A stretch of DNA of 64,000 nucleotides from Candidatus Oxydemutator sp. (GTDB lineage Bacteria > Pseudomonadota > Gammaproteobacteria > Poriferisulfidales > Oxydemutatoraceae). The notes beneath the pieces are model-generated. The model searched no databases. It was not told the DNA's origin and was given only the letters and a program-made list of their open reading frames with translations. Numbering within the stretch: position 1 is the stretch's first letter; the number at the start of each line of letters is the position of its first letter. This document shows, piece after piece, positions 48,140 through 64,000 of this stretch. A program made the translations under genes and the position numbers. The stretch spans positions 416,001 through 480,000 of the forward strand of contig OZ241883.1 of the NCBI GenBank assembly GCA_965203445.1, given 5' to 3'.

Positions 48140-49486
48140 TCAGCCCTTTTTTCCCATCTCTTGCAGGCGCGCCTCCAGATCGGGCGGCGCCACAAATAGA
48201 AACGTGCGGCCCGCGCGCGAGTGGCGCAGCAGATCTCTCTGCTCCAACGTCAGCAGATCATTGCGCGCCGTCGCGTACGTGATGCCGTGGCTGTTGAGAT
48301 GCGACCTGATCGAGTAGCGAACACCGGGGTTGCGCAGGGCGTGTCCCAGCAGCGCGGTTTGCCGATGATTCAATCCGACGTCGGCGCGCAACATCTGCTC
48401 GATGGCGCGCACCTGCCCGCTTTTGCGCGCAATGTAATTGTGCAGTTGTTTGATGGCCCCGTTGATGACCCGCAGTTGGGCGAGAATGAAATAAGTAAGA
48501 TCGTTCTCGTCGGTTTCGGTGTAGAGAAACGAGCGTGCGTAAGCCGCCGGCGCCTTGCGCAGGATGCTGGAAATGGAAAGGAATTCGGCGAGCCAGTAGC
48601 CTTGTTTCAGCATCGCCCAGTAAAACAGGGCGCGCGCGGTGCGTCCGTTGCCGTCCATGAAAGGGTGGTCGTAGGCGAACCAGAAATGCAGGAGTATGGC
48701 ACGCACCACCGGATGTACGAATTCGTGGCGCGGGCCACCGTTGGCAAATCGGCAAAGCTTTTCCATGTGTTTTGGGATTTCCCGCGCCTTCGGCGGTTGA
48801 TGCAATAGCGTGCCGTCTCGGTCGTATACCGCAATTTCGTCGTCGGTGCGCAGCCACGGCGGGGGGCAATCGGCGGGCAGCGTGTCCTTGCAGATGACGC
48901 CGTGAATCTCCTTTATCAGGGCCGGCGTCATTTTCCGTTGCTTGTGTTCGCCCGTGAGTTGCATCGCATGGTAGTTGTTGAGAATCATCCGTTCGGCGCG
49001 ATCCACGGGACGGCGCCCGGAGCGCAACATTTCCTTTGCCACCTTGCGCGTCGTCGCGGCGCCTTCGAGCTGGCTTGAGGTGATCGCCTCCTCGATCAGC
49101 GAACCTTGCAGATAGCGGTCTTTGCTACGTGGATTGGCAATCGGGTCGGGCACGTTGATCTGGCCGCTTGCGCCCCGGTCAACGTTGTGCAGCATCTCGA
49201 GGGCGGGGTCGGGCATCGTGTAGGAAAAACTGCGCCCTGCACGATCCACGAGCGGGACGAAACGCCGGGTCTGCAATCGTGTCCATTTGATGGACGCCCA
49301 CCATTCCTCCGATGTAAGCCCCTTTGGGGGCCGCACGTAGCGCAGAGTATGCCAATGGCGGTATTTTCCCTCCGGAGCAGGGCCGGTTTCCGTTCCGGGC
49401 AACTGCGCGATGCGTCGCAGGAGATCAGCGTCGGCCAATTTCTCTATAGAATCTTCATATGTCGCTGGCGTTACAGGGATTTTCAT
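48140..49486 (-). CDS. Fic family protein with C-terminal HTH
   Basis: HPFMDGNGRTAR; inhibitory SSQLEG. Confidence 0.93.
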   Translation of the reverse strand: MKIPVTPATYEDSIEKLADADLLRRIAQLPGTETGPAPEGKYRHWHTLRYVRPPKGLTSEEWWASIKWTRLQTRRFVPLVDRAGRSFSYTMPDPALEMLHNVDRGASGQINVPDPIANPRSKDRYLQGSLIEEAITSSQLEGAATTRKVAKEMLRSGRRPVDRAERMILNNYHAMQLTGEHKQRKMTPALIKEIHGVICKDTLPADCPPPWLRTDDEIAVYDRDGTLLHQPPKAREIPKHMEKLCRFANGGPRHEFVHPVVRAILLHFWFAYDHPFMDGNGRTARALFYWAMLKQGYWLAEFLSISSILRKAPAAYARSFLYTETDENDLTYFILAQLRVINGAIKQLHNYIARKSGQVRAIEQMLRADVGLNHRQTALLGHALRNPGVRYSIRSHLNSHGITYATARNDLLTLEQRDLLRHSRAGRTFLFVAPPDLEARLQEMGKKG

Positions 49487-50613: not shown

Positions 50614-52671
50614 TCAGATCTCTGATACTTGCAGTTTTTCCCCTATCACACGTTCCCAGTTTTGTAGAGTCGCGCAATAGTATGGGAGTGGTTTGCCCTC
50701 ATACTCAGCGATATGCAGATTTCCTTCGCCAAGCAACAGTGTCAGGATTGGGCGTTTCAGTTCATCTTCTTTCCGGGGATCTTCGGGGCTTTTGCTTTCC
50801 TTGATGAGGTGGTACAACTGGCCGCCATAAACCCCGATTCCATCCTCTCCACTAGGCATCGCCCTGGGTACGCGACAGTACTTGGTATTGCGCTCCTTCA
50901 ATTTCTCCAATAGCTTGTTTTTAACGTCAGCCATTGCAGCCGAGGCCGCTTGAATTACTTCTTGAGCACCAGTGTCTTCAATAACTTGAGTCTGCTGTTC
51001 CTCCTTACATATATTACCCATGTAGACTTCACCGAAATCGCGCAGGCGAACGGGAAGAACAAAGGGTTGGTGCGGTGCACTCCACATGTAGCAGTTGCCG
51101 GGAATGGGTTCCGCAATAAGATGAGCCAGAATATCTGACGAATAGTGAGAGTTGTACTTGCCGAGAACACTGGCATCACCCTCGGAGAGTAAATGAAAGC
51201 AGAACCAGTTGTCCGCCTGACTAAGCAGTTCAGGTGCCATCGCACCGGGCTGTTGCGTGACGAGCATGGCCCCAAGATCGTACTTGCGCCCTTCCTTCAC
51301 CCATTCGACATAGGGACTGGTATCGTCCAGGTTACGGCCGAGGACACTCTGCGCTTCCTCGACAACGGCAACAACGGGAATGATCGGATTTCCGCCCGTA
51401 AAGTGTTCCTGATTGTGCGAGAAAATTTTTCGGAGAAGCAATCCGGCGAGTTTATTGCCCGCACCAGAACTCAACAGGCTGATGTCGATCACAACGACTT
51501 TCCCCTTCGCCAGAGCCTGTAGCGTTCCCGACAAGACTTGGCTGTCCGGATCATGGAGAGTACGTACGACACCAGACATATTGCTGCGGGCAGCTGCGAT
51601 TTCCGCCGTTGACTGAGAAATTTGTCCTATAGCGTAGCCAAGGAGTGTGCCGACTTCCTTATCATCGGCCTGTAGTCCCTTTTCGTAAATCAGCTCAACG
51701 AGCTTGTGCCAGTTAGCATTGGAGACACTCTTGAGTTTGAGTACATTCTGTTGGGATTGGCGATCGGAAGAAACTGCGATGCCGATGACGTCGCGCGGGG
51801 AAAGGTCCCGGATATCGAGTTTCACCTCGCCAGCCTTCCAACTGCCATAGTATGCGCTTGGTGCCTGTCGGTTTGTGAACACCAGAAGTTTTTCCTTCAA
51901 ATCTGGGACGTCGCACAGTCCAGGACGGCCCGCCACACGGTCAGGCCAGAAATACTCGCCATCAGGGTCGAAAATCAGGGTGCCGACGGGACGACCGTTA
52001 GCCGTCGTTGGTTGCGTCTGATACAACTCCGCAATGAGGAACTTGACGAGATTCGACTTCCCATAGCCTGCGCGCGCAAAGACGACGGAGCGTCGAGAAA
52101 CAAGGTTCTTTATATCGAAAGTGACCTGAAGGCGGGGATCAAGAGATATTAATTCCGGCTGTGTCTGTTTGTGATCGGCTCCGCTGAATACGAACTCACC
52201 CAACACGTACTCTCCTAATTCCGTCTTGCCCCGGCTCAGTTTGCAGAGTTCCTGCAAAACCCTCTCGCTGGGCAAAGCGACCTGTGCACCGAGATGCGGG
52301 AGCCTGCGTTGTGAGGGGACGTATATGATACTGTTGCCGTCCGTGCGCACCGCCCCAAGCAATTTCACTTGCACGCGATACTTGAGACGCTGCTCCTTCA
52401 AGTCCTCAGGCACCTTCTGTTGCCTGCGTTGCATCGTGTTGACGTAATCTTCTCCTTCCGGCGCCGCCAGTAATCCAGAAGGAACAAAACGGGTTATGCG
52501 TCCAAGCGAAGCTTCCTCTGGTGACCCGAGTTCGACGAGAAGAAATTGCCCGAGTTGTGGACGGTCGAGCATACTGGCGTCGTACGGAGCAACAATCTCG
52601 GCTGCAAACTCATATCCGCGTTCGTTGAATCCTTTGAACGTTCCTACGATTTTCGAATTTGCGAACAGCAT
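50614..52671 (-). CDS. HerA/DUF87 ATPase
   Basis: HAS-barrel-like N-terminus, Walker A ARAGYGKS, DPDGEY, Walker B VVEEAQ, EGRKY, TQQP. Confidence 0.88.
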   Translation of the reverse strand: MLFANSKIVGTFKGFNERGYEFAAEIVAPYDASMLDRPQLGQFLLVELGSPEEASLGRITRFVPSGLLAAPEGEDYVNTMQRRQQKVPEDLKEQRLKYRVQVKLLGAVRTDGNSIIYVPSQRRLPHLGAQVALPSERVLQELCKLSRGKTELGEYVLGEFVFSGADHKQTQPELISLDPRLQVTFDIKNLVSRRSVVFARAGYGKSNLVKFLIAELYQTQPTTANGRPVGTLIFDPDGEYFWPDRVAGRPGLCDVPDLKEKLLVFTNRQAPSAYYGSWKAGEVKLDIRDLSPRDVIGIAVSSDRQSQQNVLKLKSVSNANWHKLVELIYEKGLQADDKEVGTLLGYAIGQISQSTAEIAAARSNMSGVVRTLHDPDSQVLSGTLQALAKGKVVVIDISLLSSGAGNKLAGLLLRKIFSHNQEHFTGGNPIIPVVAVVEEAQSVLGRNLDDTSPYVEWVKEGRKYDLGAMLVTQQPGAMAPELLSQADNWFCFHLLSEGDASVLGKYNSHYSSDILAHLIAEPIPGNCYMWSAPHQPFVLPVRLRDFGEVYMGNICKEEQQTQVIEDTGAQEVIQAASAAMADVKNKLLEKLKERNTKYCRVPRAMPSGEDGIGVYGGQLYHLIKESKSPEDPRKEDELKRPILTLLLGEGNLHIAEYEGKPLPYYCATLQNWERVIGEKLQVSEI

Positions 52672-52672
52672 A

Positions 52673-53836
52673 TCAGGCCTCCTTATATCTGAGGTTCGTC
52701 AGCGTCCGTCCCAGATGCTTCATGCGAAGCAAGCGTTCAGATTCTTCATCCGTAAGTCTGCTGCACATTCCTTGAAGCAGCATGTCCTGGAGATCCTGAA
52801 TCTCGAGCCCCGACAGCTTTGCGAAATTGTGCGCTTTCTGGATACACATCGGGTAGTCCGGAATAGGAAAACCTTGCTGCGCATCAACGGTCAGTTGTCC
52901 GAGGATGCGTTCCGCCTGACCAGCCTGCCACTCGGCAACGTCAACGGGCCATACAGGATCCATAGGTCTATCACCGAATTTAACGAGATAGAGTTTCCCA
53001 AAGGACTGGTATAGTCGCCGGCCGGTGTCGTCCTCGTCAGTGGTTTCATACGTGTCGAGCCAGGTACGATCGAAGTTGTAGCACTCGGCCTCAATATCCT
53101 CATCAACCCGAACAAAGCATGGATAAGGTTTGTGAAACGTGGCTTCGAGTTCCAGGGCGACGGCAAGTCGACCGAGTACGGCACTTTGCTTGGCTACCCC
53201 GACTAACGACAGTTGTGCGTTTTCCTTTGCATGAGTGGCAACACCGGCACGGATTTTCTGATCAAGCAAAGGAAACATGTCTCGGGTGAACGATTTGGTT
53301 CGGAGAAGACCATCCCGCACCAAAATTGTATCCCCTCCCCATTGGAGGTTGGGGTTGGCGACGAGATCATATAAGACGGCCCATTCTACAATGTCTCGAT
53401 AGCAGCGCATTGCCCCTGTACTCTTGCCGGGCGTTCCAATCCCTCTGATGAGATACGACATCTGTTCGAGGGTTTTGCCCGTGTCTTGGGCCAACCGCTC
53501 CAGGGGTGTAACTGTATGTCCCGAATCCTGTTTGGTTCTTTCTTCCAGTTCTTCAATGCTGATGGTGCTGGAGACAGCGTCGAGCACATGTTCCTTACCA
53601 CGCGAATCAACCACGCGCACAAGTTCGACAATCGCCGGATTGAAGGCAAGACGGTTATCACCTCCATCCGCAGAGACGAATGAAACGGCATTAACGGAGT
53701 AGGAACGGAGTGGTTTCACTCCATCCCGAAGGCGTTTCGCGTACTCGCGAAACTTTTGGAGATGAGGGACTTCGGAGTTATACGCCTTCATCACCTTTCG
53801 TCTGAGTTCCTCTCTATCCAGGTTAGCGAGTGACAC
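52673..53836 (-). CDS. NurA-like nuclease
   Basis: VSADGG, RDIVEW, LVRDGLL, VGVAK, DYP....AH; directly upstream of herA; start GTG 53836 or TTG 53887. Confidence 0.75.
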   Translation of the reverse strand: MSLANLDREELRRKVMKAYNSEVPHLQKFREYAKRLRDGVKPLRSYSVNAVSFVSADGGDNRLAFNPAIVELVRVVDSRGKEHVLDAVSSTISIEELEERTKQDSGHTVTPLERLAQDTGKTLEQMSYLIRGIGTPGKSTGAMRCYRDIVEWAVLYDLVANPNLQWGGDTILVRDGLLRTKSFTRDMFPLLDQKIRAGVATHAKENAQLSLVGVAKQSAVLGRLAVALELEATFHKPYPCFVRVDEDIEAECYNFDRTWLDTYETTDEDDTGRRLYQSFGKLYLVKFGDRPMDPVWPVDVAEWQAGQAERILGQLTVDAQQGFPIPDYPMCIQKAHNFAKLSGLEIQDLQDMLLQGMCSRLTDEESERLLRMKHLGRTLTNLRYKEA

Positions 53837-53840
53837 GTTC

Positions 53841-55007
53841 TCAGCCCATTGTCTCAGCGATTGTATGGAGTCGACGCAGGTTGGCAATGGTTCCTCCCAG
53901 GTTCCAGTTTCTCCATTCAGGGAACCGTTGTGCTCGAGGAAACGCCCATCGCTCGGCCCAATACTCGGTAATCTGGCTTGGTGTCTGCGTTATGTACTCA
54001 GGATGCACTGCTTTTCCAAGAAGAAAGTCGCGTGTATTGCCAGCGAGAGGGATGACAAAAACTTGCCGACGGATTCCGTGCTGAAGAATGTCGGCCTTTA
54101 TTCCCAATTCTGTTGCAGCTTGGCGAATGACCCGTATACGCCAATTTGGTCCATTACCGAATTTGTTTCCTTGGGCATAGGAGTGATTGCGACGGATGAG
54201 GACGTCCCGCAGTTGCGTGAATGTGTCTTCGTCAATATGAAAGTGTCCATAGCCCTGAGAATACCACGTTGGAACTTGATGATTTTCAACATTCGTGAGA
54301 AATGCAGTTCCCTGCGGAATGCGAAGGCGGTTGTATATGGATGATCGTCCAAGTGCCGACGATGTCGTCAGAAGAACAAGTTGTGGTTTCTTTTTCTTTT
54401 CACTTATTACACCCCGATAGTTGCGATACTTCAGGTGGAAATTTCTTACTATCTCGCTGGAGGTAGCCAACAGGGCCACCAACTTACCGCCTAAGATCTT
54501 GCTGTATGGCGGTAAGGCCCCAAGGACAAATGCGTCCATCGTGTGGATTAGACGATCTTTGCGTCCGTTGGCATCCCAACCAACCCAAGCGTCTCGCGGC
54601 GTGAGATTAAAGACGGGATCAGTCAGTCCGATAATACCGATGAGCTTCCCGTTGTTTTTATCTCTGACAAGGTAGCGCATACGCCTCCCGAAGCCTTTGC
54701 TTACTGGAATTGACCAAAGAAGTGAGGCGGCGTTGAATATTTGGGAGTCACAGGTTCCTCCTGCCACAGCAGTTAATTGAGGCTCGATCTCAGAAATATT
54801 AATTTCACGTGGATTGGCGAGATACTGGCGCAGAAGACCAATGTGATGCTCAAAGGAGCCATTCATAGTAGCCATAGTGGCCAAACGTTTTCCTGAGTGG
54901 AACACGCGAATCTGCTTTTTGTTTAAGGTGCTGGGCAAGGATGGAAACTGCTCGGCTACGCTAAGCAGATGTCTTCGTAGGGAATATTCCTTGGGGGTGA
55001 GTTTCAT
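53841..55007 (-). CDS. DUF4338 (Druantia DruA-like) protein
   Basis: WSIPVSKGFGRR.RYLV, GKLIGI, RD..VGW, MDAFVLGALPPY..LGGKLVA, TTSSALGRSSIYNRL. Confidence 0.85.
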   Translation of the reverse strand: MKLTPKEYSLRRHLLSVAEQFPSLPSTLNKKQIRVFHSGKRLATMATMNGSFEHHIGLLRQYLANPREINISEIEPQLTAVAGGTCDSQIFNAASLLWSIPVSKGFGRRMRYLVRDKNNGKLIGIIGLTDPVFNLTPRDAWVGWDANGRKDRLIHTMDAFVLGALPPYSKILGGKLVALLATSSEIVRNFHLKYRNYRGVISEKKKKPQLVLLTTSSALGRSSIYNRLRIPQGTAFLTNVENHQVPTWYSQGYGHFHIDEDTFTQLRDVLIRRNHSYAQGNKFGNGPNWRIRVIRQAATELGIKADILQHGIRRQVFVIPLAGNTRDFLLGKAVHPEYITQTPSQITEYWAERWAFPRAQRFPEWRNWNLGGTIANLRRLHTIAETMG

Positions 55008-55947: not shown

Positions 55948-57186
55948 CTACAGTTTTTCCCACAGACGGCGCGTGGGGACGGCGTGAAGCTTTTCCCCGA
56001 AGCGGATCATTTTCCCCCCGTTATAAACCACCGCGCCGCCGGCAAAGGCGTCCCCCATCGTGGATTGCAGGCGGCGCAGGCCGCGAAAGTCGGAAGGGGA
56101 AATGGTGGCCGAGGACTTCACTTCCACGCCGGCGACGGAGTGCACGCTGCGTTCGATAACGAGGTCCACTTCCACGCCGTCTTTGTCGCGGTAGTGAAAA
56201 AAATCATGCCTTTCATCGTGCCCGTCCGCCTGCCGCCTCAATTCCTGCAGGACGAAAGTTTCCAGCAGTTGTCCGAGCAACGCGCGGTCGTTTCGCAGTT
56301 CCTCCGCGTCCACTTTCAGCAGCGCGCAGGCAAGCCCGGTGTCGGCCAGATGCAGTTTCGGGGTCTTGACGAATCGTTTGCGTCTGTTCGCGTGCCACGC
56401 GGGAATTCTTTCCAGCAGAAACAGCCGCTCCAGCAAAGAGATATAACCTTGAATCGTCGGTCTGCTGTGCTGAAAGTATGCCGCGAGTTTATTGACGTTC
56501 AAAAGCCGCGCCGTGGAGGCCGCCGAAAACGCCAACAGTCTCGGCAGATCCTCGACCGACCGGATGCGTGAAATCGTGAATGCATCGCTATTGGCTATGG
56601 TTGTCAGATAGCTTTGGTACCACTCGATGCGACGTGTCTTGTCGGAGTATTCGAGGGCCGCCGGATAACCGCCATATACTATTCTTTGCGCGGGATCGGT
56701 CAGCGCGACTTGCCAGCGGTTCGGAAACTTTGCCGAGAACAGCAAATCCAGAAAATCCGGTTTTTTGTGTTCCAGCTCGGTTTGCGCGAGCGGATGCATA
56801 CGGACGATTTCCATTCGTCCGGCGAGCGAATCGGAAAGTCCGCGCACGTGCAGAACGCTGACCGAGCCGGTCAAAATGAAGCGCCCTGGAACGCGGTTTT
56901 TGTCAACGGCGAGTTTTATCTGTGAAAAGATTCGGGGAGATTTCTGAATCTCGTCCAATATGACTTTTCTCGGCAGAGAATTGACAAAGCCCACGGGGTC
57001 GTTCAGGACGTAATCCAGGGTTTGTGCATCGTCCATGCTGATATAGACATAGCCCGCGGATTTCCCCACTTTCTGCGCGAGCGTCGTTTTGCCACACTGA
57101 CGCGGCCCATGAATCAGCGTAACCGGAGTGTCTTTCAAGGCCCTTCTCAGGCATGGTTCCACGTGGCGGGGATGCAGTCTTTTCAT
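55948..57186 (-). CDS. AAA ATPase with DUF4143-type C-terminus
   Basis: GPRQCGKTT, LDEIQ, LTGS, SLAGR, KTPK..DTG, EVDLV...EVK. Confidence 0.9.
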   Translation of the reverse strand: MKRLHPRHVEPCLRRALKDTPVTLIHGPRQCGKTTLAQKVGKSAGYVYISMDDAQTLDYVLNDPVGFVNSLPRKVILDEIQKSPRIFSQIKLAVDKNRVPGRFILTGSVSVLHVRGLSDSLAGRMEIVRMHPLAQTELEHKKPDFLDLLFSAKFPNRWQVALTDPAQRIVYGGYPAALEYSDKTRRIEWYQSYLTTIANSDAFTISRIRSVEDLPRLLAFSAASTARLLNVNKLAAYFQHSRPTIQGYISLLERLFLLERIPAWHANRRKRFVKTPKLHLADTGLACALLKVDAEELRNDRALLGQLLETFVLQELRRQADGHDERHDFFHYRDKDGVEVDLVIERSVHSVAGVEVKSSATISPSDFRGLRRLQSTMGDAFAGGAVVYNGGKMIRFGEKLHAVPTRRLWEKL

Positions 57187-57213
57187 ACGGTTTATTATGT
57201 CCGCAAGTGGGAC

Positions 57214-57295
57214 TGATTGCAAGTTTATATATAGGACGATTAAAAGTTCAGTAAGAGGATGATTGCAAGTTTCATGTATGGCTGATTGAAAGTAT
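57214..57295. repeat. four direct repeats with 23-bp period
   Basis: TGATTGCAAGTTT (57214), CGATTAAAAGTTC (57237), TGATTGCAAGTTT (57260), TGATTGAAAGTAT (57283). Confidence 0.75.
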
Positions 57296-57325: not shown

Positions 57326-58204
57326 CTATCCGTGCCCGATTTTCCAGACGCCCTTTTCTCGGAAGGCCGGGATGGTCTGGCGGCGGGCGGCGTTGGTGAC
57401 GGCGGGTGCCGAGAGTTTTTGTTGCCTGATGTAATCGGACAAGCGGACGATTCGTTCTCCTTTCAGGTAGGCAGTCCGTTTGTGCAGAGATTCCATCAAG
57501 GCCAGGAACAGAATCTTTTCCATCCCCTTTGTCCGGCCGTTGGCGTCGTAATCGCGCAACGCCTGATAGTAGACCTGCTTTTCTTTGTTGCGGATTATGA
57601 CGCAGGGAAATCCCGACTCCAGCAGCTGGAAATTGACGAGCACCCGTCCGATGCGGCCGTTGCCGTCGCAAAACGGATGGATGGATTCAAAATCCAGATG
57701 GAATTTTGCTATTTTGTCGAGAAAATAAGCGTTCATATCGTTTGCGCAGGAAAGCAGAATTTCGCTCATCATTTCTTCGACGTGTTCCGGCGGAGGTGCT
57801 ACGTGATAACCGACGCGCACGAACTCGCCCTGCCGCCGAAAGCGCCCGGCGATGGAGTCGTCAATGCCGCCCATCAGCATATTGTGGAGCAGCAGTATCA
57901 GGTCTCTGGTCAGCGGTTCTCTCTCCGCGGCCCTGTCGCGCTCGTATGCGATCACACGCGCCAGGTTTTTCGCCTCGAACATTTCCCGAATGGATACGTT
58001 TCGGGATAACTTGGTCCCCAGCAGGATTTTCTCGGTCTCCCGCAGGGTCAGCGTGGAGTTTTCTATCGCGTTGGAGTTATAGACGTTCTCCGGCGTTTCC
58101 GCCTCGTCAATCAAGGCCAGCAGGGATTCCTTGCCGGTTTTGAGGGAGGCATATTCCTCCCGCAAACGTTGGATTCTGTCTCTGATGGACGGGGAGATTG
58201 CCAT
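57326..58204 (-). CDS. Fic family protein
   Basis: SNAIEN inhibitory motif, HPFCDGNGRIGR, small C-terminal HTH-like domain. Confidence 0.93.
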   Translation of the reverse strand: MAISPSIRDRIQRLREEYASLKTGKESLLALIDEAETPENVYNSNAIENSTLTLRETEKILLGTKLSRNVSIREMFEAKNLARVIAYERDRAAEREPLTRDLILLLHNMLMGGIDDSIAGRFRRQGEFVRVGYHVAPPPEHVEEMMSEILLSCANDMNAYFLDKIAKFHLDFESIHPFCDGNGRIGRVLVNFQLLESGFPCVIIRNKEKQVYYQALRDYDANGRTKGMEKILFLALMESLHKRTAYLKGERIVRLSDYIRQQKLSAPAVTNAARRQTIPAFREKGVWKIGHG

Positions 58205-58397: not shown

Positions 58398-58673
58398 ATG
58401 GCAAGAGTGCAGTTGATAATCCCCGACGAGGACCGCACCCGGTTTGCCTACCAGGCACGCCGGGAGGGCATGTCCCTGAGCGCTTGGCTGCGGGCCGCGG
58501 CCGGTGAACGGCTTGTGCGACAGTCGAAAACCAGACGCTTTGAATCCGAAGCAGAACTCGCGGCCTTTTTCGCTGAGTGCGACAAATTGGAAGGCCCGGG
58601 CGTGGAACCGGACTGGAACCAGCACCTGGCCACCATAAACGAATCCCGCCGGCGCGGCATATCAAACACTTGA
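58398..58673 (+). CDS. RHH/VapB-like antitoxin
   Basis: MARVQLIIPDE...AR.EGMSLSAWLR; overlaps the PIN gene. Confidence 0.8.
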   Translation: MARVQLIIPDEDRTRFAYQARREGMSLSAWLRAAAGERLVRQSKTRRFESEAELAAFFAECDKLEGPGVEPDWNQHLATINESRRRGISNT

Positions 58674-59065
58674 TCTTCGTAGATACCAACGTATTCATGT
58701 ACTCGGTGGGCCGGGCACATCCGCTGCAGGAACCGGCCCGCGAATTTTTTGCCGAGTCGGACCGCAATCAGACACCGTTATGCACTTCCGCGGAAGTCTT
58801 ACAGGAACTGGCCCATGCTTACCTTCCCGTGCAGCGACAACGAACGCTCGAGGCTGCCATGTCGCTTGTAATCAGGGCGGGAATTGAGGTTTGGCCTTTG
58901 GAGAGCGAGGATGTACATCTCGCCTGCCAACTGCATGAGCAGTTCCCCACCCTTGGCGTAAGAGACCTCTGCCACCTGGCAAGTTGCCAGCGACACGGAG
59001 CGACCAGTATCAAGACCTTCGATAAAGCCCTCGCCACTGTCGCAAACATCCCGAAAAATATATAG
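58670..59065 (+). CDS. vapC: VapC/PIN toxin
   Basis: IFVDTNVF, EVLQE, RDLCH, TFD; TTG start. Confidence 0.88.
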   Translation: MIFVDTNVFMYSVGRAHPLQEPAREFFAESDRNQTPLCTSAEVLQELAHAYLPVQRQRTLEAAMSLVIRAGIEVWPLESEDVHLACQLHEQFPTLGVRDLCHLASCQRHGATSIKTFDKALATVANIPKNI

Positions 59066-59091: not shown

Positions 59092-61527
59092 ATGCCGAGC
59101 AGAATTGTCGATCTAATAAAAAAATGGGCGAACTGGCTGTGGTGCCGAATATCCGCCACTACTGATAGCGGTGATGGCGACAAGCCTGTTCCGCCAAATA
59201 ACGATGTATCCAGTCAGCCGGAAGGTGTTGGACAAGATCGCATCGAGCCATATTCTGATGGTCCCGAGAAACCACTTGACGAGAATCAACGGACAGAGAA
59301 CAAAAATGAGCAGGCGTCTGGCGACGGAAAAACACCCCAGAGTTCTCCTGCGTCAAATAAGCAATCAGGGCTTCCCGCTACCGATACTGATAGCGGCAAG
59401 CCTGTTCCGCCGAATAACGATATATCCAGTCAGCCGGAGGATGTTGAACAAAATCGCATCGAGTCATGTTCTGATGGTCACGAGAAACAACCCGACGAGG
59501 ATCAACGGACAGAGGACAAAATTGAGCGGGCATCTGGCGACGGAATAACGTCCCAAAGTTCTCCTGCGTCAAATAAGCAGTCAGGCCTTTCCGCTACCGA
59601 TGAGGATGACTCCGACTCTTATGATCATGAAAAGCCTGAACTGGCAGGAAACGACAAACCCGTTGGCAGGCAATCCAAGCCTCCCAGAGAAATACCCGCG
59701 AGACGAGGGCGGGAAAGAGGCACCTCGTCCCGGAAGGAAAAGGGAGAACCAAAGAAATCTTCCCCTGGCCCCCGAGCACAACTGATATGCATAGAAAAAG
59801 AACAGCGCTGGGGGCTGTACTTATCTGCGGATGAGGAATGCCCAATAGCAAAAGTTCGGCAAGGAAACGAACCTCTGGCCAGTGCAGGAGGTGAATGGAG
59901 TATTCTATCCTTCCGTGGCAGCTTGTCCATCACCTATGAGGATGGAGAACGTCACGAGATTGAGCTATTCAATGATAGACCGCTGGTCTTCAAATTCCAA
60001 GGCGGATGGCAAGGCACAGGCCACAAAGTCAAATACATCACGAGCGGCCATTTCATCGTCATCGTGCCGCAAGAATGGCATCGCAGAGGGAACGTCCCGG
60101 TCGAACAGGATGGGTGCACGGACTCCGGGTTCATTGCACACTACTTCTCTCGTGGGAGAGAAGACTCATCCGAAGATGCAGGCGGTTTCGGGGAATATGC
60201 CGGCCCATTGACGAAATCCAGCTTCACATTGATCGGGAATCGTATCTTCGACAACTCCGATGAAGGCGAACTGTTCGGCGGCCCGGTTCTGGAGCTGAAC
60301 CTCGCTTCTGAGGTCGAGTGGGTGCGAGTCGGCGAGGAAAGAGATGGCGGATGGCCGGGCGACAACTTCAAGCCGGACAAACCTCTTGCAGAGGTCCTGA
60401 ACGGCCGACAGGGGCGATTCTTCGTTCGTGTGTACGACGATGATACCAAACGGCTGGACAGTGACGAGTTTCGATATTTCGCCAATCTTCAAAAAATCCT
60501 TGTGGATGGCGCGCCCTACAGTGAAACTTCGCTGCTCATTCCGTCTTCGACCGGCCATTCTCCGACGGAAGTGCAGCTCATCGGCACCGAGGATTCCCTC
60601 ATTCTCCCAAAATTGGAGACAGATGAGGCCTGGACAACCGTACGGCCGGACGGCACCGTTGTTGTCAAACCGCATCCAGACGGCGATCATGTTTCTTGTA
60701 AGCTGGAGTCCGATAAGGGCAGCGTCCGGGTGGAAATAAAGCTCCCCCGCATCTGGTGGCGGTTGAGCCAACGCGGGGAACAATCCGAAGACTGGCACAG
60801 CGTACCATTCGAGGTGACGCGCCAGGGATTCAGGGACCGTGCCGAACGGGACGAGGCTATTTGGCTGCGGTTGCCGCTACGTATCGCTTCCGTCAAGGCA
60901 GGATTCGACGAAGAAACAGATCGAAAGTACCGCTCTGACAAGAAGGGAGAAGATGTCGAGATTCCCTTGCTCGATTTTCTCGACTACCGGCAGATTGACC
61001 AACGGCTGAACGCGGACACTTCGCTTAATATTGAAATTGGCGAACAAGTGTTGGCACTTATCCAGGTTTCCAGTGATCCGGTGCCAACGATCCTCTCATT
61101 TGCGTGTGAACCGGAGGCCATCAACGAGGGGGATGTGGCGACCTTGTCCTGGGAAACTCAGGACACGGAACCCGAAGGCGTAACAATCGAACCCGAAATC
61201 GGGTCGGTGAAACCAAATGGCAGCCGCACTGTTTCGCCGAACGAGACCACAACTTATACGCTGAGATTGACGGCTGCCAATATGGATGACGTGACAAAAG
61301 ACGCGACCGTGACGATTCATCGGGAAGCACCGCACGGAACACCACCGGAAGCCATGGTCAAGTGTCGGAGTGGATGGCGACGAGGCAAGGGCTTCAGCCG
61401 GCGCGAACTGCGCGCCGCAGGTCTGGCACCAGAGAACGACGCGCGGGGTTTCATTCCTGTCGACCGCCGCCGACGGAGCATGCATCCGGACAACGTAGCA
61501 ACACTCAGGAGGTTGACTGATGCCTGA
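59092..61527 (+). CDS. 811-aa protein: disordered repeat N-terminus, beta-rich middle, Ig-like domain, C-terminal eL13-like motif
   Basis: 72-aa tandem duplication; PTILSF...ATLSW...TTTYTL; RRGKGFSRRELRAAGL...IPVDRRRRSMHPDNV. Confidence 0.8.
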   Translation: MPSRIVDLIKKWANWLWCRISATTDSGDGDKPVPPNNDVSSQPEGVGQDRIEPYSDGPEKPLDENQRTENKNEQASGDGKTPQSSPASNKQSGLPATDTDSGKPVPPNNDISSQPEDVEQNRIESCSDGHEKQPDEDQRTEDKIERASGDGITSQSSPASNKQSGLSATDEDDSDSYDHEKPELAGNDKPVGRQSKPPREIPARRGRERGTSSRKEKGEPKKSSPGPRAQLICIEKEQRWGLYLSADEECPIAKVRQGNEPLASAGGEWSILSFRGSLSITYEDGERHEIELFNDRPLVFKFQGGWQGTGHKVKYITSGHFIVIVPQEWHRRGNVPVEQDGCTDSGFIAHYFSRGREDSSEDAGGFGEYAGPLTKSSFTLIGNRIFDNSDEGELFGGPVLELNLASEVEWVRVGEERDGGWPGDNFKPDKPLAEVLNGRQGRFFVRVYDDDTKRLDSDEFRYFANLQKILVDGAPYSETSLLIPSSTGHSPTEVQLIGTEDSLILPKLETDEAWTTVRPDGTVVVKPHPDGDHVSCKLESDKGSVRVEIKLPRIWWRLSQRGEQSEDWHSVPFEVTRQGFRDRAERDEAIWLRLPLRIASVKAGFDEETDRKYRSDKKGEDVEIPLLDFLDYRQIDQRLNADTSLNIEIGEQVLALIQVSSDPVPTILSFACEPEAINEGDVATLSWETQDTEPEGVTIEPEIGSVKPNGSRTVSPNETTTYTLRLTAANMDDVTKDATVTIHREAPHGTPPEAMVKCRSGWRRGKGFSRRELRAAGLAPENDARGFIPVDRRRRSMHPDNVATLRRLTDA
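59182..59601 (+). repeat. in-frame 216-bp tandem duplication
   Basis: AAGCCTGTTCCGCC at 59182 and 59398, with similarity continuing for about 200 bp. Confidence 0.9.
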
Positions 61528-64000
61528 CGCAAACGACATCGAACGGTGGACCGAAATGATCCGCCAACGGTACGAGAACTACCTGAAGACGTCCTTTTAC
61601 TTCAAGGATGGCAACCTTCGGGACTCGTTCCGGTCTGCTCTGCAAGAAGGCGGCAGCCTGCTGAAGGGGCCGTTTCCCGAACCGGCGCGCGGCTTCAAGA
61701 AGGGTATGCATGCAAGGAATCTGGCACAGAACTGTTTTCCCAAAAAGAGTGAGGAGGTTCTTCCTGCGCTACTGATTGATAAACATGACTACCAGTTGTA
61801 CGTCCATCAGGAACGCGCGATACGCGCTGTACACCTGGATCGGCAAAACATCGTCGTCGCTACCGGCACCAGCAGCGGAAAGACGGAAAGTTTTCTTTAT
61901 CCCATCCTGTTCGAGCTGTTCCATCAGTACCTCACAGACAAACTGCGGGAACCGGGTGTGCGGGCTTTGATCCTGTATCCGATGAACGCGCTTGCCAACG
62001 ATCAGCGTGAACGCCTTGGGGGTATCTGCCAGGAGCTGGCCGATGCAGGATCGGCATTTCGCCCGACCTTCGGGCAATACATCGGCCAGACACCCGAGGA
62101 CGAAAAGGACCACCGGCGCAATGCCACGGCGTGGGAGGAAAGACGACTCCCTAGTGAGCTCGTCTTTCGTAAGGAAATGCGGGACACTCCGCCCCACATT
62201 CTGCTTACCAACTACTCTATGCTGGAGTACCTGCTGATTCGTCCCGACGACAGTCCACTCTTCGACGGAGATCGGGGTACACACTGGCAGTTCATCGTGT
62301 TGGACGAGGCACACCAGTACCGGGGTGCCAAAGGCATGGAGATGGGCATGTTGATCCGGCGCCTCAAGCAACGGCTGCGTGACGGCGGGCGGAAGGAAAC
62401 TTTCCGCTGTATCGCCACCAGCGCAACCATTTCGTCCGGCGAAGACGAGAAAGATAGACAAGCAGTCGCGCAGTTTGCAAAATCGCTTTTTGGAGAACCG
62501 TTCTCGGCATCCGGCATCATCTTTGGAGAGGCGGAACAACCAAGCGCGGACGAATCGCCACGCCGCTACCATGCCTTTCTACGCTCGCTCGAAGGCGCGT
62601 TTTTGGTTCATAGAGACGGTGCGGACGCTGTCGTGCTCAATCGAAAAGGTGTAGCAGAAAGCGATTCGACCTCAGAACCTTTGGAGATCGCACTGTGCCG
62701 CGAGTGTGGACAGCACTACTACGTTGGCCAAGAGCAGGGCGGAAAGTTGCAGGAGGCCGTACGGGACCCCAGCCAGTCGAACTTCGGCGTGGAATACTAC
62801 CTGCCGTCGGAGGATGGAGATCATCTCCTTTGCAGGCGTTGCGGGATGCTTTCCATGTCGAAACCGGCATGCGATTGCGGCGTATCGGTTCACGTCAAGC
62901 AGTGCCAACCCCACCAAGAGCATGCCGACCAGTTAAAGCAATGCGAGACGTGCGGGTATCAGCGCGGCGGCATCGGCGATCCCGTGCAAGAGATCGTCCA
63001 CGGCTCCGATGCGCCCAATGCCGTCATTGCGACCGCGCTCCACGAACTCTTGCCCGAGGACCGGCGCAAAGTGCTGGCTTTTGCCGACAGTCGCCAAGAG
63101 GCCGCATTCTTTGCGTGGTATGCCGAGGACTCCTACGCAAAGCTACGCGACCGCAATCTGATGTTTCGCGCGATGAAAGCGGGACCAATCGATCCGGAAG
63201 GCTTATCCATTGACGACCTCAAAAACCGGCTACATAAACAGTGGGAAGAGGCTGGCTTGTTCGATGAGCCAGATGCCAGGGAGAGCAATGACCGAAAAGT
63301 GCTGATGTCGATCCTCCGCGAAGCGGTGACGGACGAGCGGAGGTTGTCTTTGAGTGGGGTCGGTCTGGTCAGGTGGTCCATCAAAATTCCTGACGACGTG
63401 GAATTACCCTTGGCAATGCAGCCACCTTGGAATCTGACAGAGGATGAAACACGTCGTTTGCTCGGGTATCTTATGGATGAATTGCGAGTTCGCCGTGCCA
63501 TGAATCTACCGGAAGGCCCTGGGGTGCCGGGATGGAGTGACGTATCGACTCGGAATCAACAAGCATACTGTCAGGGAATGCCGGGCAATAGGAGAAACGT
63601 TCGAAAATGGGGCGGTCCCCAATCCACAATCGTCAGCCACTTCCTTCGCAGGCTCCTGACGGACAGCAATCTTTCAGATGACAAGAGACGGTCAGCCTCC
63701 ACCGAACTCATGAAGAATGTCTGGCAGACTTTGCGCAAGCGCGACGGTGAACGCGGCACGGCTGATTGCATTCTTTCCAGTACAAGCATCAATGGAGCAT
63801 TTCGTCTCAACCCGCGCTGGCTTCGAATACAGCTGGCTGCATCAGGCGAAATCTGGGAATGCGATACCTGCGCAAGCCTGACCGCCCATAACGTGCGCAA
63901 AGTTTGTCCTCGGAATAAATGTCCCGGAAAACTGGAACCTGCCGACCAATCGCGCCTCCGGCAAAATCACTATCGAATCCTCTACGAAAGTGCCGACTTG
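61520..64000 (+). CDS. large SF2 DEAH helicase (YprA/DruE-like), runs off window
   Basis: Manual translation: LYVHQ, TGTSSGKTE, YPMNALANDQ, LTNYSMLEYLL, LDEAH, TSAT, CxxC clusters, KVLAFADSRQEAA; absent from the ORF track because it has no stop in the window. Confidence 0.92.
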   Translation, partial: MPDANDIERWTEMIRQRYENYLKTSFYFKDGNLRDSFRSALQEGGSLLKGPFPEPARGFKKGMHARNLAQNCFPKKSEEVLPALLIDKHDYQLYVHQERAIRAVHLDRQNIVVATGTSSGKTESFLYPILFELFHQYLTDKLREPGVRALILYPMNALANDQRERLGGICQELADAGSAFRPTFGQYIGQTPEDEKDHRRNATAWEERRLPSELVFRKEMRDTPPHILLTNYSMLEYLLIRPDDSPLFDGDRGTHWQFIVLDEAHQYRGAKGMEMGMLIRRLKQRLRDGGRKETFRCIATSATISSGEDEKDRQAVAQFAKSLFGEPFSASGIIFGEAEQPSADESPRRYHAFLRSLEGAFLVHRDGADAVVLNRKGVAESDSTSEPLEIALCRECGQHYYVGQEQGGKLQEAVRDPSQSNFGVEYYLPSEDGDHLLCRRCGMLSMSKPACDCGVSVHVKQCQPHQEHADQLKQCETCGYQRGGIGDPVQEIVHGSDAPNAVIATALHELLPEDRRKVLAFADSRQEAAFFAWYAEDSYAKLRDRNLMFRAMKAGPIDPEGLSIDDLKNRLHKQWEEAGLFDEPDARESNDRKVLMSILREAVTDERRLSLSGVGLVRWSIKIPDDVELPLAMQPPWNLTEDETRRLLGYLMDELRVRRAMNLPEGPGVPGWSDVSTRNQQAYCQGMPGNRRNVRKWGGPQSTIVSHFLRRLLTDSNLSDDKRRSASTELMKNVWQTLRKRDGERGTADCILSSTSINGAFRLNPRWLRIQLAASGEIWECDTCASLTAHNVRKVCPRNKCPGKLEPADQSRLRQNHYRILYESADL

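Follow-up and report, generated by a model that had tools for sequence, protein, structure and literature searches.

A DruE-like helicase and its Ig-rich partner with an exchangeable eL13-like tail: a conserved two-gene cassette with a predicted role in anti-phage defence

Why should a bacterial protein end in a piece of the archaeal and eukaryotic ribosome, and why should this protein be encoded immediately ahead of a large helicase? The question is raised by a locus at the end of a 64,000-nucleotide stretch of DNA from Candidatus Oxydemutator sp. (contig OZ241883.1, positions 416,001 to 480,000), which is called the window here. The genome is one contig of 2,378,814 bases (C1), and the window is C1:416001-480000. 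An initial annotation, made from the letters of the window, had read the two genes as a Druantia-like system in which the ribosomal domain is a nucleic-acid sensor or tether. We find that the upstream gene, called the partner below, and the helicase gene form a conserved, stand-alone two-gene cassette, and sequence profiles together with the predicted fold confirm homology of the last ~55 partner residues to ribosomal protein eL13. Comparison with related proteins further indicates that the C-terminus of the partner is an integration hot spot for other proteins. The two genes probably encode a Druantia-like defence pair. In window coordinates, the parts of the cassette are as follows.

59092..61527, plus strand: partner gene (P0001), an intact open reading frame (ORF) of 811 amino acids (aa), a new family and DruH analogue
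59095..59154, plus strand: N-terminal helix, aa 2-21 (AlphaFold model; predicted local distance difference test score, pLDDT, 77-80 for the block)
59155..59760, plus strand: disordered acidic Ser/Pro-rich region, aa 22-223 (pLDDT <50)
59172-59601, plus strand: two copies of a 216-nucleotide (nt) tandem repeat in the disordered region (Tandem Repeats Finder, 87% matches)
59779..61326, plus strand: all-beta body, aa 230-745, a chain of immunoglobulin (Ig)-like beta-sandwich domains (AlphaFold, pLDDT mostly 80-95)
61072-61317, plus strand: last Ig-like domain, aa 661-742, weakly PKD/He_PIG/Big_9-like and below the Pfam cut-off
61354..61524, plus strand: eL13-homologous C-terminal module, aa 755-811 (NCBIfam match to aa 759-808, that is 61366-61515)
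61507..61527, plus strand: translational-coupling junction, with AGGAGG at 61507-61512, the helicase ATG at 61520 and the partner TGA at 61525-61527
61520..64000 and on to window-equivalent 65779 (C1:477520-481779), plus strand: DruE-like helicase of the YprA family (P0003), 1419 aa (ORF, Pfam, PADLOC)

That the last ~60 aa resemble L13e, as first noted from the translation, is borne out by profile searches. The NCBIfam model PRK12277 (50S ribosomal protein L13e) matches aa 759-808 over positions 25-74 of its 83 with an E-value of 2.7e-11 and a score of 42.9 bits, against an equivalog cut-off of 96. The Pfam family Ribosomal_L13e (PF01294) matches the whole partner at 2.7e-4 with 21.3 bits and does not reach its cut-off of 24.9, which is exceeded when the 75-aa tail is searched alone (26.6 bits). 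Measured against these cut-offs, the scores indicate that the tail is homologous to the eL13 core and yet is no equivalog. A profile of 42 family members was also searched against all PDB chain sequences, resulting in 70 matches at E<=1; all of them were eL13/L13 among the 60 matches listed, and the best was 9e6q_AH (3.6e-9). No other part of the partner matched PDB sequences with this profile, the published DruH cryo-EM chains possibly lying outside the PDB copy that was searched.

The tail is well conserved among relatives. In an alignment of 44 tails, one from the window and 43 from related loci, five residues (F, S, E, D and R) never vary and four others (G, R, H and N) hardly do; 40 of the 44 match PF01294 when taken alone (best 8.6e-11), and identity across many phyla is 28-53%, a conservation at the protein level. 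The AlphaFold model of the tail has a mean pLDDT of 77.9. Its top 50 Foldseek matches all fall within eukaryotic ribosome or pre-60S entries (template modelling (TM) score TMq 0.51-0.68, 24-33% identity, root-mean-square deviation 2.3-6.1 A), and at least 17 of them are chains named eL13 in the PDB profile search, a result to be read in the knowledge that the fold model was built from an alignment of homologous tails.

Judging from its size and from its identity to small L13e proteins, the tail represents about one whole short-form L13e and is more than a motif. The profile search detected 73 small L13e-type proteins of 58-132 aa, several of them source-named 'ribosomal protein L13e', and free-standing L13e proteins of 70-100 aa are 41-60% identical to the tail, spanning 51-84% of it. 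A single-sequence search for stand-alone tails among proteins of <446 aa returned one match, probably a fragment. Short archaeal eL13 (PRK12277) shares with the tail the core signature G-[KR]-G-F-S..E....G.........D.RR.S.H..N, the size of the whole protein and the predicted fold. In contrast to archaeal eL13, the tail is fused onto the end of a bacterial defence-type protein, and its host is a bacterium without an eL13 of its own. Some of the small proteins show a different fusion: in P0284, P0288, P0307 and ~15 similar proteins (127-131 aa), an eL13 core at the N-terminus is combined with helix-hairpin-helix motifs (PF14520, PF11798 and PF14229 by precomputed labels), and one of these proteins is source-labelled 'flap endonuclease-1-like 5' DNA nuclease'.

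The premise of the initial annotation that bacterial ribosomes lack eL13 agrees with PMC9932298, where eL13 is specific to archaea and eukaryotes. Consistently, the partner tail is the sole PF01294 match in a search of the whole host genome, which carries a bacterial small subunit (SSU) rRNA scoring 1554 bits across the full model. The tail also stands as a clear case of an archaeal/eukaryotic ribosomal protein kept by bacteria, presumably for a non-ribosomal job.

The remainder of the partner belongs to a large family that carries few names. The full-length AlphaFold model has a mean pLDDT of 72, and with the whole protein Foldseek finds generic multi-Ig proteins only (contactin, DSCAM, GhpA; TM 0.08-0.16), so that no specific family is indicated. 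A word-indexed search for relatives of P0001, in which 8000 candidates were scored, gave 315 relatives at E<=1e-3 with 43-57% identity, and just one of the 315 carries a source name, 'hypothetical protein'. In an exhaustive search of 50%-identity representatives the family comprises 1502 representatives at E<=1e-30; at E<=1e-3 there are 15,697, a number swollen by Ig domains, and giant Ig-repeat proteins take up three places among the top 150. In PADLOC, 0 families match the partner P0001 at E<=0.1. Two of 51 long or atypical family members (a subset of P0126-P0255) contain a DUF4389 domain (6.1e-19).

The coupling of partner and helicase is visible at the junction itself, where ATGCCTGA at 61520-61527 places the partner TGA over the helicase ATG in an 8-nt overlap, with AGGAGG 7 nt ahead of that ATG. 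The initial annotation had described a stop codon overlapping the start of a large Zn-cluster SF2 (superfamily 2) helicase, and the sequence, Pfam and the CxxC clusters of the translation all agree. To what extent is this arrangement shared? Scanning one genome per species yielded 73 related loci, and the survey supports the co-occurrence that had been suggested: a helicase relative lies directly downstream on the same strand in 65 of them, and 53 have a clear eL13 tail. Stop and start overlap in 50 of the 65 paired loci, by 8 nt in 34 and by 11 nt in 11. Among the eight loci without the helicase, the contig stops at the match in three (L034, L060, L071) and the matches are partial or degenerate in four (L056, L070, L074, L075). 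No other flanking ORF family occurs within 5 kb in more than 5 of the 73 loci. In L007 (9413-15137), an intact partner with its eL13 tail is followed, at the same 8-nt overlap, by a GmrSD_N (DUF262) protein that replaces DruE, and then by an AAA_15/AAA_21/DUF3696 ATPase. It is therefore possible that the partner works with other effectors as well, and such a gene swap is what a modular sensor would allow.

The 73 loci are spread widely. They come from Thermodesulfobacteriota, Binatia, Latescibacterota, Verrucomicrobia, Acidobacteriota, Dadabacteria and Rhodothermales, and also from Gamma- and Alphaproteobacteria, Chloroflexota (SAR202, Dehalococcoidia), Spirochaetia, Poribacteria, Gemmatimonadota and Nitrospinales, among other groups. 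Many of their titles name lineages (Poribacteria, 'Poriferihabitaceae', Latescibacterota, Dadabacteria, SAR202 and Binatia) that are typical of marine sponge or coral microbiomes, a habitat link that is only tentative for the loci themselves.

The helicase half of the cassette is of a known kind. It carries DEAD (4.3e-18) and Helicase_C (7.4e-11) domains, its translation shows GTSSGKT and DEAH motifs, and CxxC clusters are seen between the RecA halves. A C-terminal DUF1998 had been anticipated beyond the window, and it is found there as MZB (MrfA Zn-binding, the former DUF1998; PF09369; 1.1e-13) at aa 1310-1390 of 1419, with the protein ending directly after it. The helicase thus combines an SF2 DEAD/DEAH core, Helicase_C and an MZB on the C-terminal side, as YprA/MrfA-like helicases do. 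The Pfam scan of the helicase detected no nuclease domain. In PADLOC its best models are DruE1 (5.5e-160) and DruE3 (5e-151), other families being far weaker (DpdJ 2e-26, DrmA 1.4e-18), and it shares ~29% of residues with E. coli DruE in an alignment over 59% of its length. By its domain make-up it fits the compact, nuclease-less 'III-B / III-like' DruE branch that Bell et al. 2025 describe, naming 'Druantia Type III-B' as a representative. In L017, L052, L062 and L072 the helicase match spans 5.2-9.8 kb rather than the usual ~4.2 kb, a span which indicates that these loci hold an insertion in or beside the helicase gene.

Repair helicases, too, belong to the YprA family, according to the same authors (Bell et al. 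2025), and the NCBIfam matches of the helicase are weak and generic helicase matches only. The pair might, on these grounds, be no defence system at all and consist of a housekeeping YprA/MrfA-type repair helicase with an accessory protein. We consider this extremely unlikely. The DruE models are the best hidden Markov model (HMM) matches by more than 100 orders of magnitude, the genes are embedded in an island of low guanine-plus-cytosine (GC) content full of defence genes, and the pair has a patchy distribution over many phyla, behaving as a mobile unit of two genes whose neighbourhoods differ.

If the pair is a defence system, is it Druantia type III, whose layout the initial annotation had recognised? 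With respect to the two genes and the DruE-family helicase with its MZB the answer is yes; with respect to the partner it is no. The likeness is considerable: the cassette has two genes with the partner upstream, a stop/start overlap and no further conserved gene; its helicase, of the DruE family, has Zn clusters placed between the two RecA halves and bears MZB/DUF1998 at the C-terminus; the partner consists mostly of Ig-like domains followed by a C-terminal module, as in DruH; and the setting is a defence island. However, the partner has 811 aa against the 1119 of E. coli DruH, it begins with a disordered, repeat-containing N-terminus where DruH has a globular N-terminal domain, and it ends in eL13, while its helicase has 1419 aa and no nuclease. 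By sequence the partner is no DruH: besides the PADLOC scan without a hit, an hhalign comparison of E. coli DruH with the 42-sequence profile reached a probability of 0.2%. The DruH used was the 'STY4851/ECs_5259 family protein', whose gene on plasmid NZ_CP127005.1 adjoins a Zorya II / DruE / SNF2 array. A likeness to the Clostridium butyricum partner, which accompanies the best plasmid helicase match, was rejected with the same hhalign probability of 0.2%. The partner is thus a family of its own, though built like DruH.

DruH itself, according to Hu et al. 2026, starts with a globular domain, continues with six Ig-like subdomains and ends in a C-terminal domain that, together with Ig5, binds single-stranded DNA (ssDNA) in a manner blocked by ATP. 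Another group counts ten domains, of which one is Ig-like and three are Fn3-like. In E. coli Druantia III, according to published work, DruE is a 3'-to-5' helicase acting on ssDNA-containing duplexes and both genes are required. Four Druantia III papers of 2026 differ over the role of DruH and leave it open, with the protein taken for a sensor, for a scaffold or for an ssDNA binder gated by ATP. It is in this respect that the partner is of value: its end is both recognisable and swappable, which makes the question of what the partner recognises directly testable, and the swappable tail hints at how Druantia-like systems sense infection.

How swappable is the tail? An HMM built from the tails was run on 251 proteins. 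An eL13-type tail is present in 213 of them, in 205 of which it ends <=10 residues from the C-terminus. The 38 proteins without it comprise 3 giant Ig-repeat proteins that are not members of the family, 7 fragments ending in the body and 28 proteins with other tails, so that the tail is found in 213 of 248 family proteins. Among the 73 loci, it is detected at E<=1e-5 in 52 and at 1.4e-5 in L059; L054 has a tail of a different type with a borderline partial eL13 match (3.7e-4), 12 more loci have other tails and 7 have fragments. Proteins that lack the last Ig domain still retain the eL13 tail (L043-L046 and L061-L069 are examples), and insertions within it, with both halves retained, are seen in L018, L047 and L048.

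The other tails are in part whole proteins of the expression machinery. L038 ends in a full-length Ribosomal_S17 (Pfam, 99.1 bits), a family that the precomputed Pfam labels also assign to P0070. P0162 and P0253 end in the N- and C-terminal domains of Ribosomal_S5, both above the Pfam cut-off; these two uS5 tails are 61% identical and therefore probably go back to one event. In L013 the tail is RNA_pol_Rpb6, the omega subunit of RNA polymerase (36.5 bits against a cut-off of 26), and in P0117 a full NusB domain (2.1e-27) precedes the eL13 tail. Expression-machinery proteins (uS17, uS5, omega, NusB) thus make up four of the five non-eL13 types identified by Pfam. P0254 has a sub-threshold HHH_5 match only, and the tail of L033 gave chance-level matches to IscB and uL10 among PDB sequences (E 0.18-0.87). 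By-eye labels of the remaining tails as basic coiled coil, HTH-like, winged-helix-like, HARE-like or Zn-ribbon received no support from Pfam, and bS6 for P0135/P0191 and uL29 for the coiled-coil tails were dropped for want of support from any tool.

The omega tail allows its origin to be traced. The L013 genome contains two RNA_pol_Rpb6 matches of equal score, the tail and a separate 108-codon frame (rpoZ), which encode identical proteins from Met to end and share 97.7% of nucleotides over 311 nt. Seven nucleotides differ: four in rpoZ codons, all of them at third positions and silent, two in the pair of junction codons that precede the Met and one after the stop. Because the two copies differ, the tail is no collapsed-repeat artefact, and the sequences identify it as a recent capture of the host's own gene. 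The uS17 tail of L038, which is 46% identical to the uS17 of its own genome over 91 aa (BLASTP) and 45% to the P0070 tail, is old, judging from these identities.

What was there before the replacements can also be read from the DNA. In L013 a 95-nt gap after the omega stop encodes, in another frame, the second half of the eL13 tail up to the helicase start, and untranslated remnants of the eL13 tail end likewise precede the helicase start in L035, L050, L051, L054 and L055, as well as, in degenerate form, in L038. Given these remnants behind replaced tails, the eL13 tail is ancestral and the others were inserted into it; its 3' end was retained because the helicase ribosome-binding site sits there. 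This invites the idea that the tail is a relic or mere coupling element, with no ligand, kept for the Shine-Dalgarno sequence and start codon of the helicase, and that the other tails are neutral or harmful insertions. AGGAGG and ATG do fall within the last codons of the tail, and the 3' coding end of eL13 stays untranslated before the helicase in all seven loci just named. However, the invariant G-F-S, E and D-R-R lie 60-130 nt upstream of the start, beyond the reach of any ribosome-binding site, the tail is conserved as a protein across many phyla as described above, and the replacement types that Pfam identifies come, with one exception in five, from one small functional class. A relic is for these reasons very unlikely.

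How, then, might the cassette work? We favour, at slightly less than an even chance, a self-contained Druantia-III-type anti-phage cassette in which an exchangeable tail from the expression machinery docks the sensor and positions or gates the helicase. In analogy to E. coli DruE, the product of gene 2 would be the effector, an ATP-driven DruE/YprA helicase that takes hold of phage DNA intermediates where they are single-stranded and unwinds them. The product of gene 1 would be a cytosolic scaffold or sensor of chained Ig-like domains that fills the role of DruH, and its C-terminus would accommodate a single small protein, taken whole from the gene-expression machinery. The default is eL13 of the archaeal type; uS17, uS5 or omega take its place in variants, and in one case NusB stands ahead of eL13. 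According to this proposal, the tail module is the ligand-binding end of the partner. Its target would be structured RNA, ribosomal or other, or else the ribosome or RNA-polymerase machinery, and the sensor docked there would in turn position or gate the helicase on DNA under expression.

The original notion of an RNA-binding sensor is too narrow in light of the tails found at the same position (uS17, uS5, NusB and omega). Omega is known as a binder of the beta' subunit and not of nucleic acid, and in L013 the tail copies the host protein exactly; what the tails share would therefore be the expression machinery, not RNA binding as such. The same subunit bears on another possibility, close to the earlier 'sensor' reading, namely that the eL13 module is a small basic nucleic-acid-binding domain which holds helicase-made ssDNA, as the C-terminal domain would do in DruH, and has no link to the ribosome. 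Since eL13, uS17, uS5 and NusB are all RNA binders, most of the identified tails would suit such a clamp, and the small proteins that couple the eL13 core with helix-hairpin-helix motifs would suit it as well. DruH, too, binds ssDNA between Ig5 and its C-terminal domain (Hu et al. 2026). However, the replacement of the tail by omega in L013 is at odds with a generic clamp, and the conserved residues of the tail are those of true eL13, which suggests a specific eL13-type contact over mere charge. We regard the clamp as improbable.

A further explanation, which we likewise consider unlikely, makes the tail an integrated decoy: a bait mimicking a component of the host expression machinery, such that a phage factor which acts on ribosomal proteins, omega or NusB, by binding or by modification, would strike the bait and switch on the helicase. 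The integration of whole host-type proteins (omega, uS17, uS5, NusB) would be expected of a decoy, as would a protein identical to host omega with silent changes only, which is what a mimic must be. The tail position is moreover a hot spot with many different inserts, and the eL13 remnants show repeated replacement. However, the commonest and ancestral tail, eL13, is absent from bacteria and so cannot mimic a protein of their host. We know of no phage factor that specifically targets uS17, uS5 or omega, which also counts against a decoy, and the present observations do not separate a bait from an anchor.

Plant NLR immune receptors with integrated decoy domains offer a comparison here. In both cases a variable, host-derived domain on a conserved immune scaffold has been replaced repeatedly at one position, whereas kingdom and scaffold differ, and that the grafted domain is a target of pathogens is only conjecture for the cassette. 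One may speculate that the C-terminus of a DruH-like scaffold is a dedicated integration slot, a bacterial counterpart of the NLR-integrated domains, in which eL13 has been overwritten time and again by omega, uS17 and uS5 of the host and lengthened by NusB, and whose module either baits phage factors that hijack ribosomes or RNA polymerase or anchors the helicase system on the machinery of transcription and translation; this is possible but rather doubtful. If it is true, an anchored helicase system would meet phage DNA upon its expression, and if the tails are baits or anchors, bacterial immunity would be seen to monitor the expression machinery in a manner not known before.

Several observations weigh against the docking of the cassette by an expression-machinery tail that we favour, and against the exchange of tails as an adaptation. 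That the commonest tail has a docking site on the bacterial ribosome is pure conjecture because bacteria have no eL13, and docking and bait share this main weakness, as no host site or original is known for eL13 in bacteria. One identified tail, MacB_PCD in P0225, lies outside the expression machinery, and about seven further tail types stayed without a match, in Pfam at E<=0.05-1 and, for four of them, among PDB sequences at E<=1. The capture of omega is seen at a single locus, and the uS17 tails, at 45-46% identity to the host's own copy and to each other, are too divergent to point to a source. Several of the replaced tails have a stop of their own followed by an untranslated eL13 remnant, and some of these may be damage, not adaptation. 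Faulty assembly could account for the frameshifts of L050, L051 and L055, and all 73 related loci are titled as metagenome-assembled genomes (MAGs).

The cassette has a partial parallel in the TALON and TOTE conflict systems, where, according to Bell et al. 2025, a borrowed component of transcription or translation is likewise part of a predicted immune operon around a YprA-family helicase. There, the borrowed TBP (TATA-binding protein) and TPR-CSD (with a cold-shock domain) are separate genes and a NERD nuclease is present, whereas in the cassette the protein borrowed from the ribosome or RNA polymerase is fused to the Ig-rich partner and there is no nuclease. The main text of Bell et al. 2025 does not contain the terms 'ribosomal', 'L13', 'S17', 'NusB' or 'omega', and no ribosomal domain is mentioned in the Druantia III main texts searched, supplements being outside this scope. 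A literature search, which covered papers and not their supplementary tables, found none linking L13e/eL13 with Druantia or DUF1998. As far as this search reaches, the literature describes neither the partner family and its eL13 end nor the replacement of eL13 there by uS17, uS5 or omega and the insertion of NusB ahead of it.

The cassette lies in a defence island. GC content is ~0.47-0.58 around it, compared with 0.61-0.71 upstream, and drops at roughly 48 kb of the window; no tRNA was found at the island borders. The neighbouring genes are listed here, in window coordinates unless C1 is given.

48140-49486: SoFic-like Fic protein (PADLOC 1.3e-40)
50614-52671, minus strand: HerA-like ATPase (DUF87 4.9e-24)
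52673-53887, minus strand: 404-aa protein of no family
53841-55007, minus strand: DruA gene (PF14236 1.6e-76; PADLOC DruA1 5.2e-120)
55948-57222: PDC-S01 AAA_14/DUF4143 ATPase (7e-156)
57326-58204: second Fic/DOC protein
58577-59065: PIN-domain protein
C1:481935-485123 (L002 6936-10124), minus strand: type I restriction HsdR, 1063 aa
C1:487541-491605 (L002 12542-16606), minus strand: nucleotidyltransferase, two HsdS repeats, TIR and STAND NTPase in a single ORF of 1355 aa

The DruA gene is 4 kb from the cassette and on the opposite strand. A link between the cassette and the DruA-404aa-HerA genes was rejected, as none of these occurs within 10 kb in the 73 related loci, and the single operon of Druantia type I (DruA-DruB-DruC-DruD-DruE) is not what is present at the cassette. 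DruA, the 404-aa protein and HerA form a three-gene set of their own, without DruB, DruC, DruD or DruE. On the far side of the cassette, the region of the 1355-aa TIR-STAND fusion has a GC content of only 0.34-0.45.

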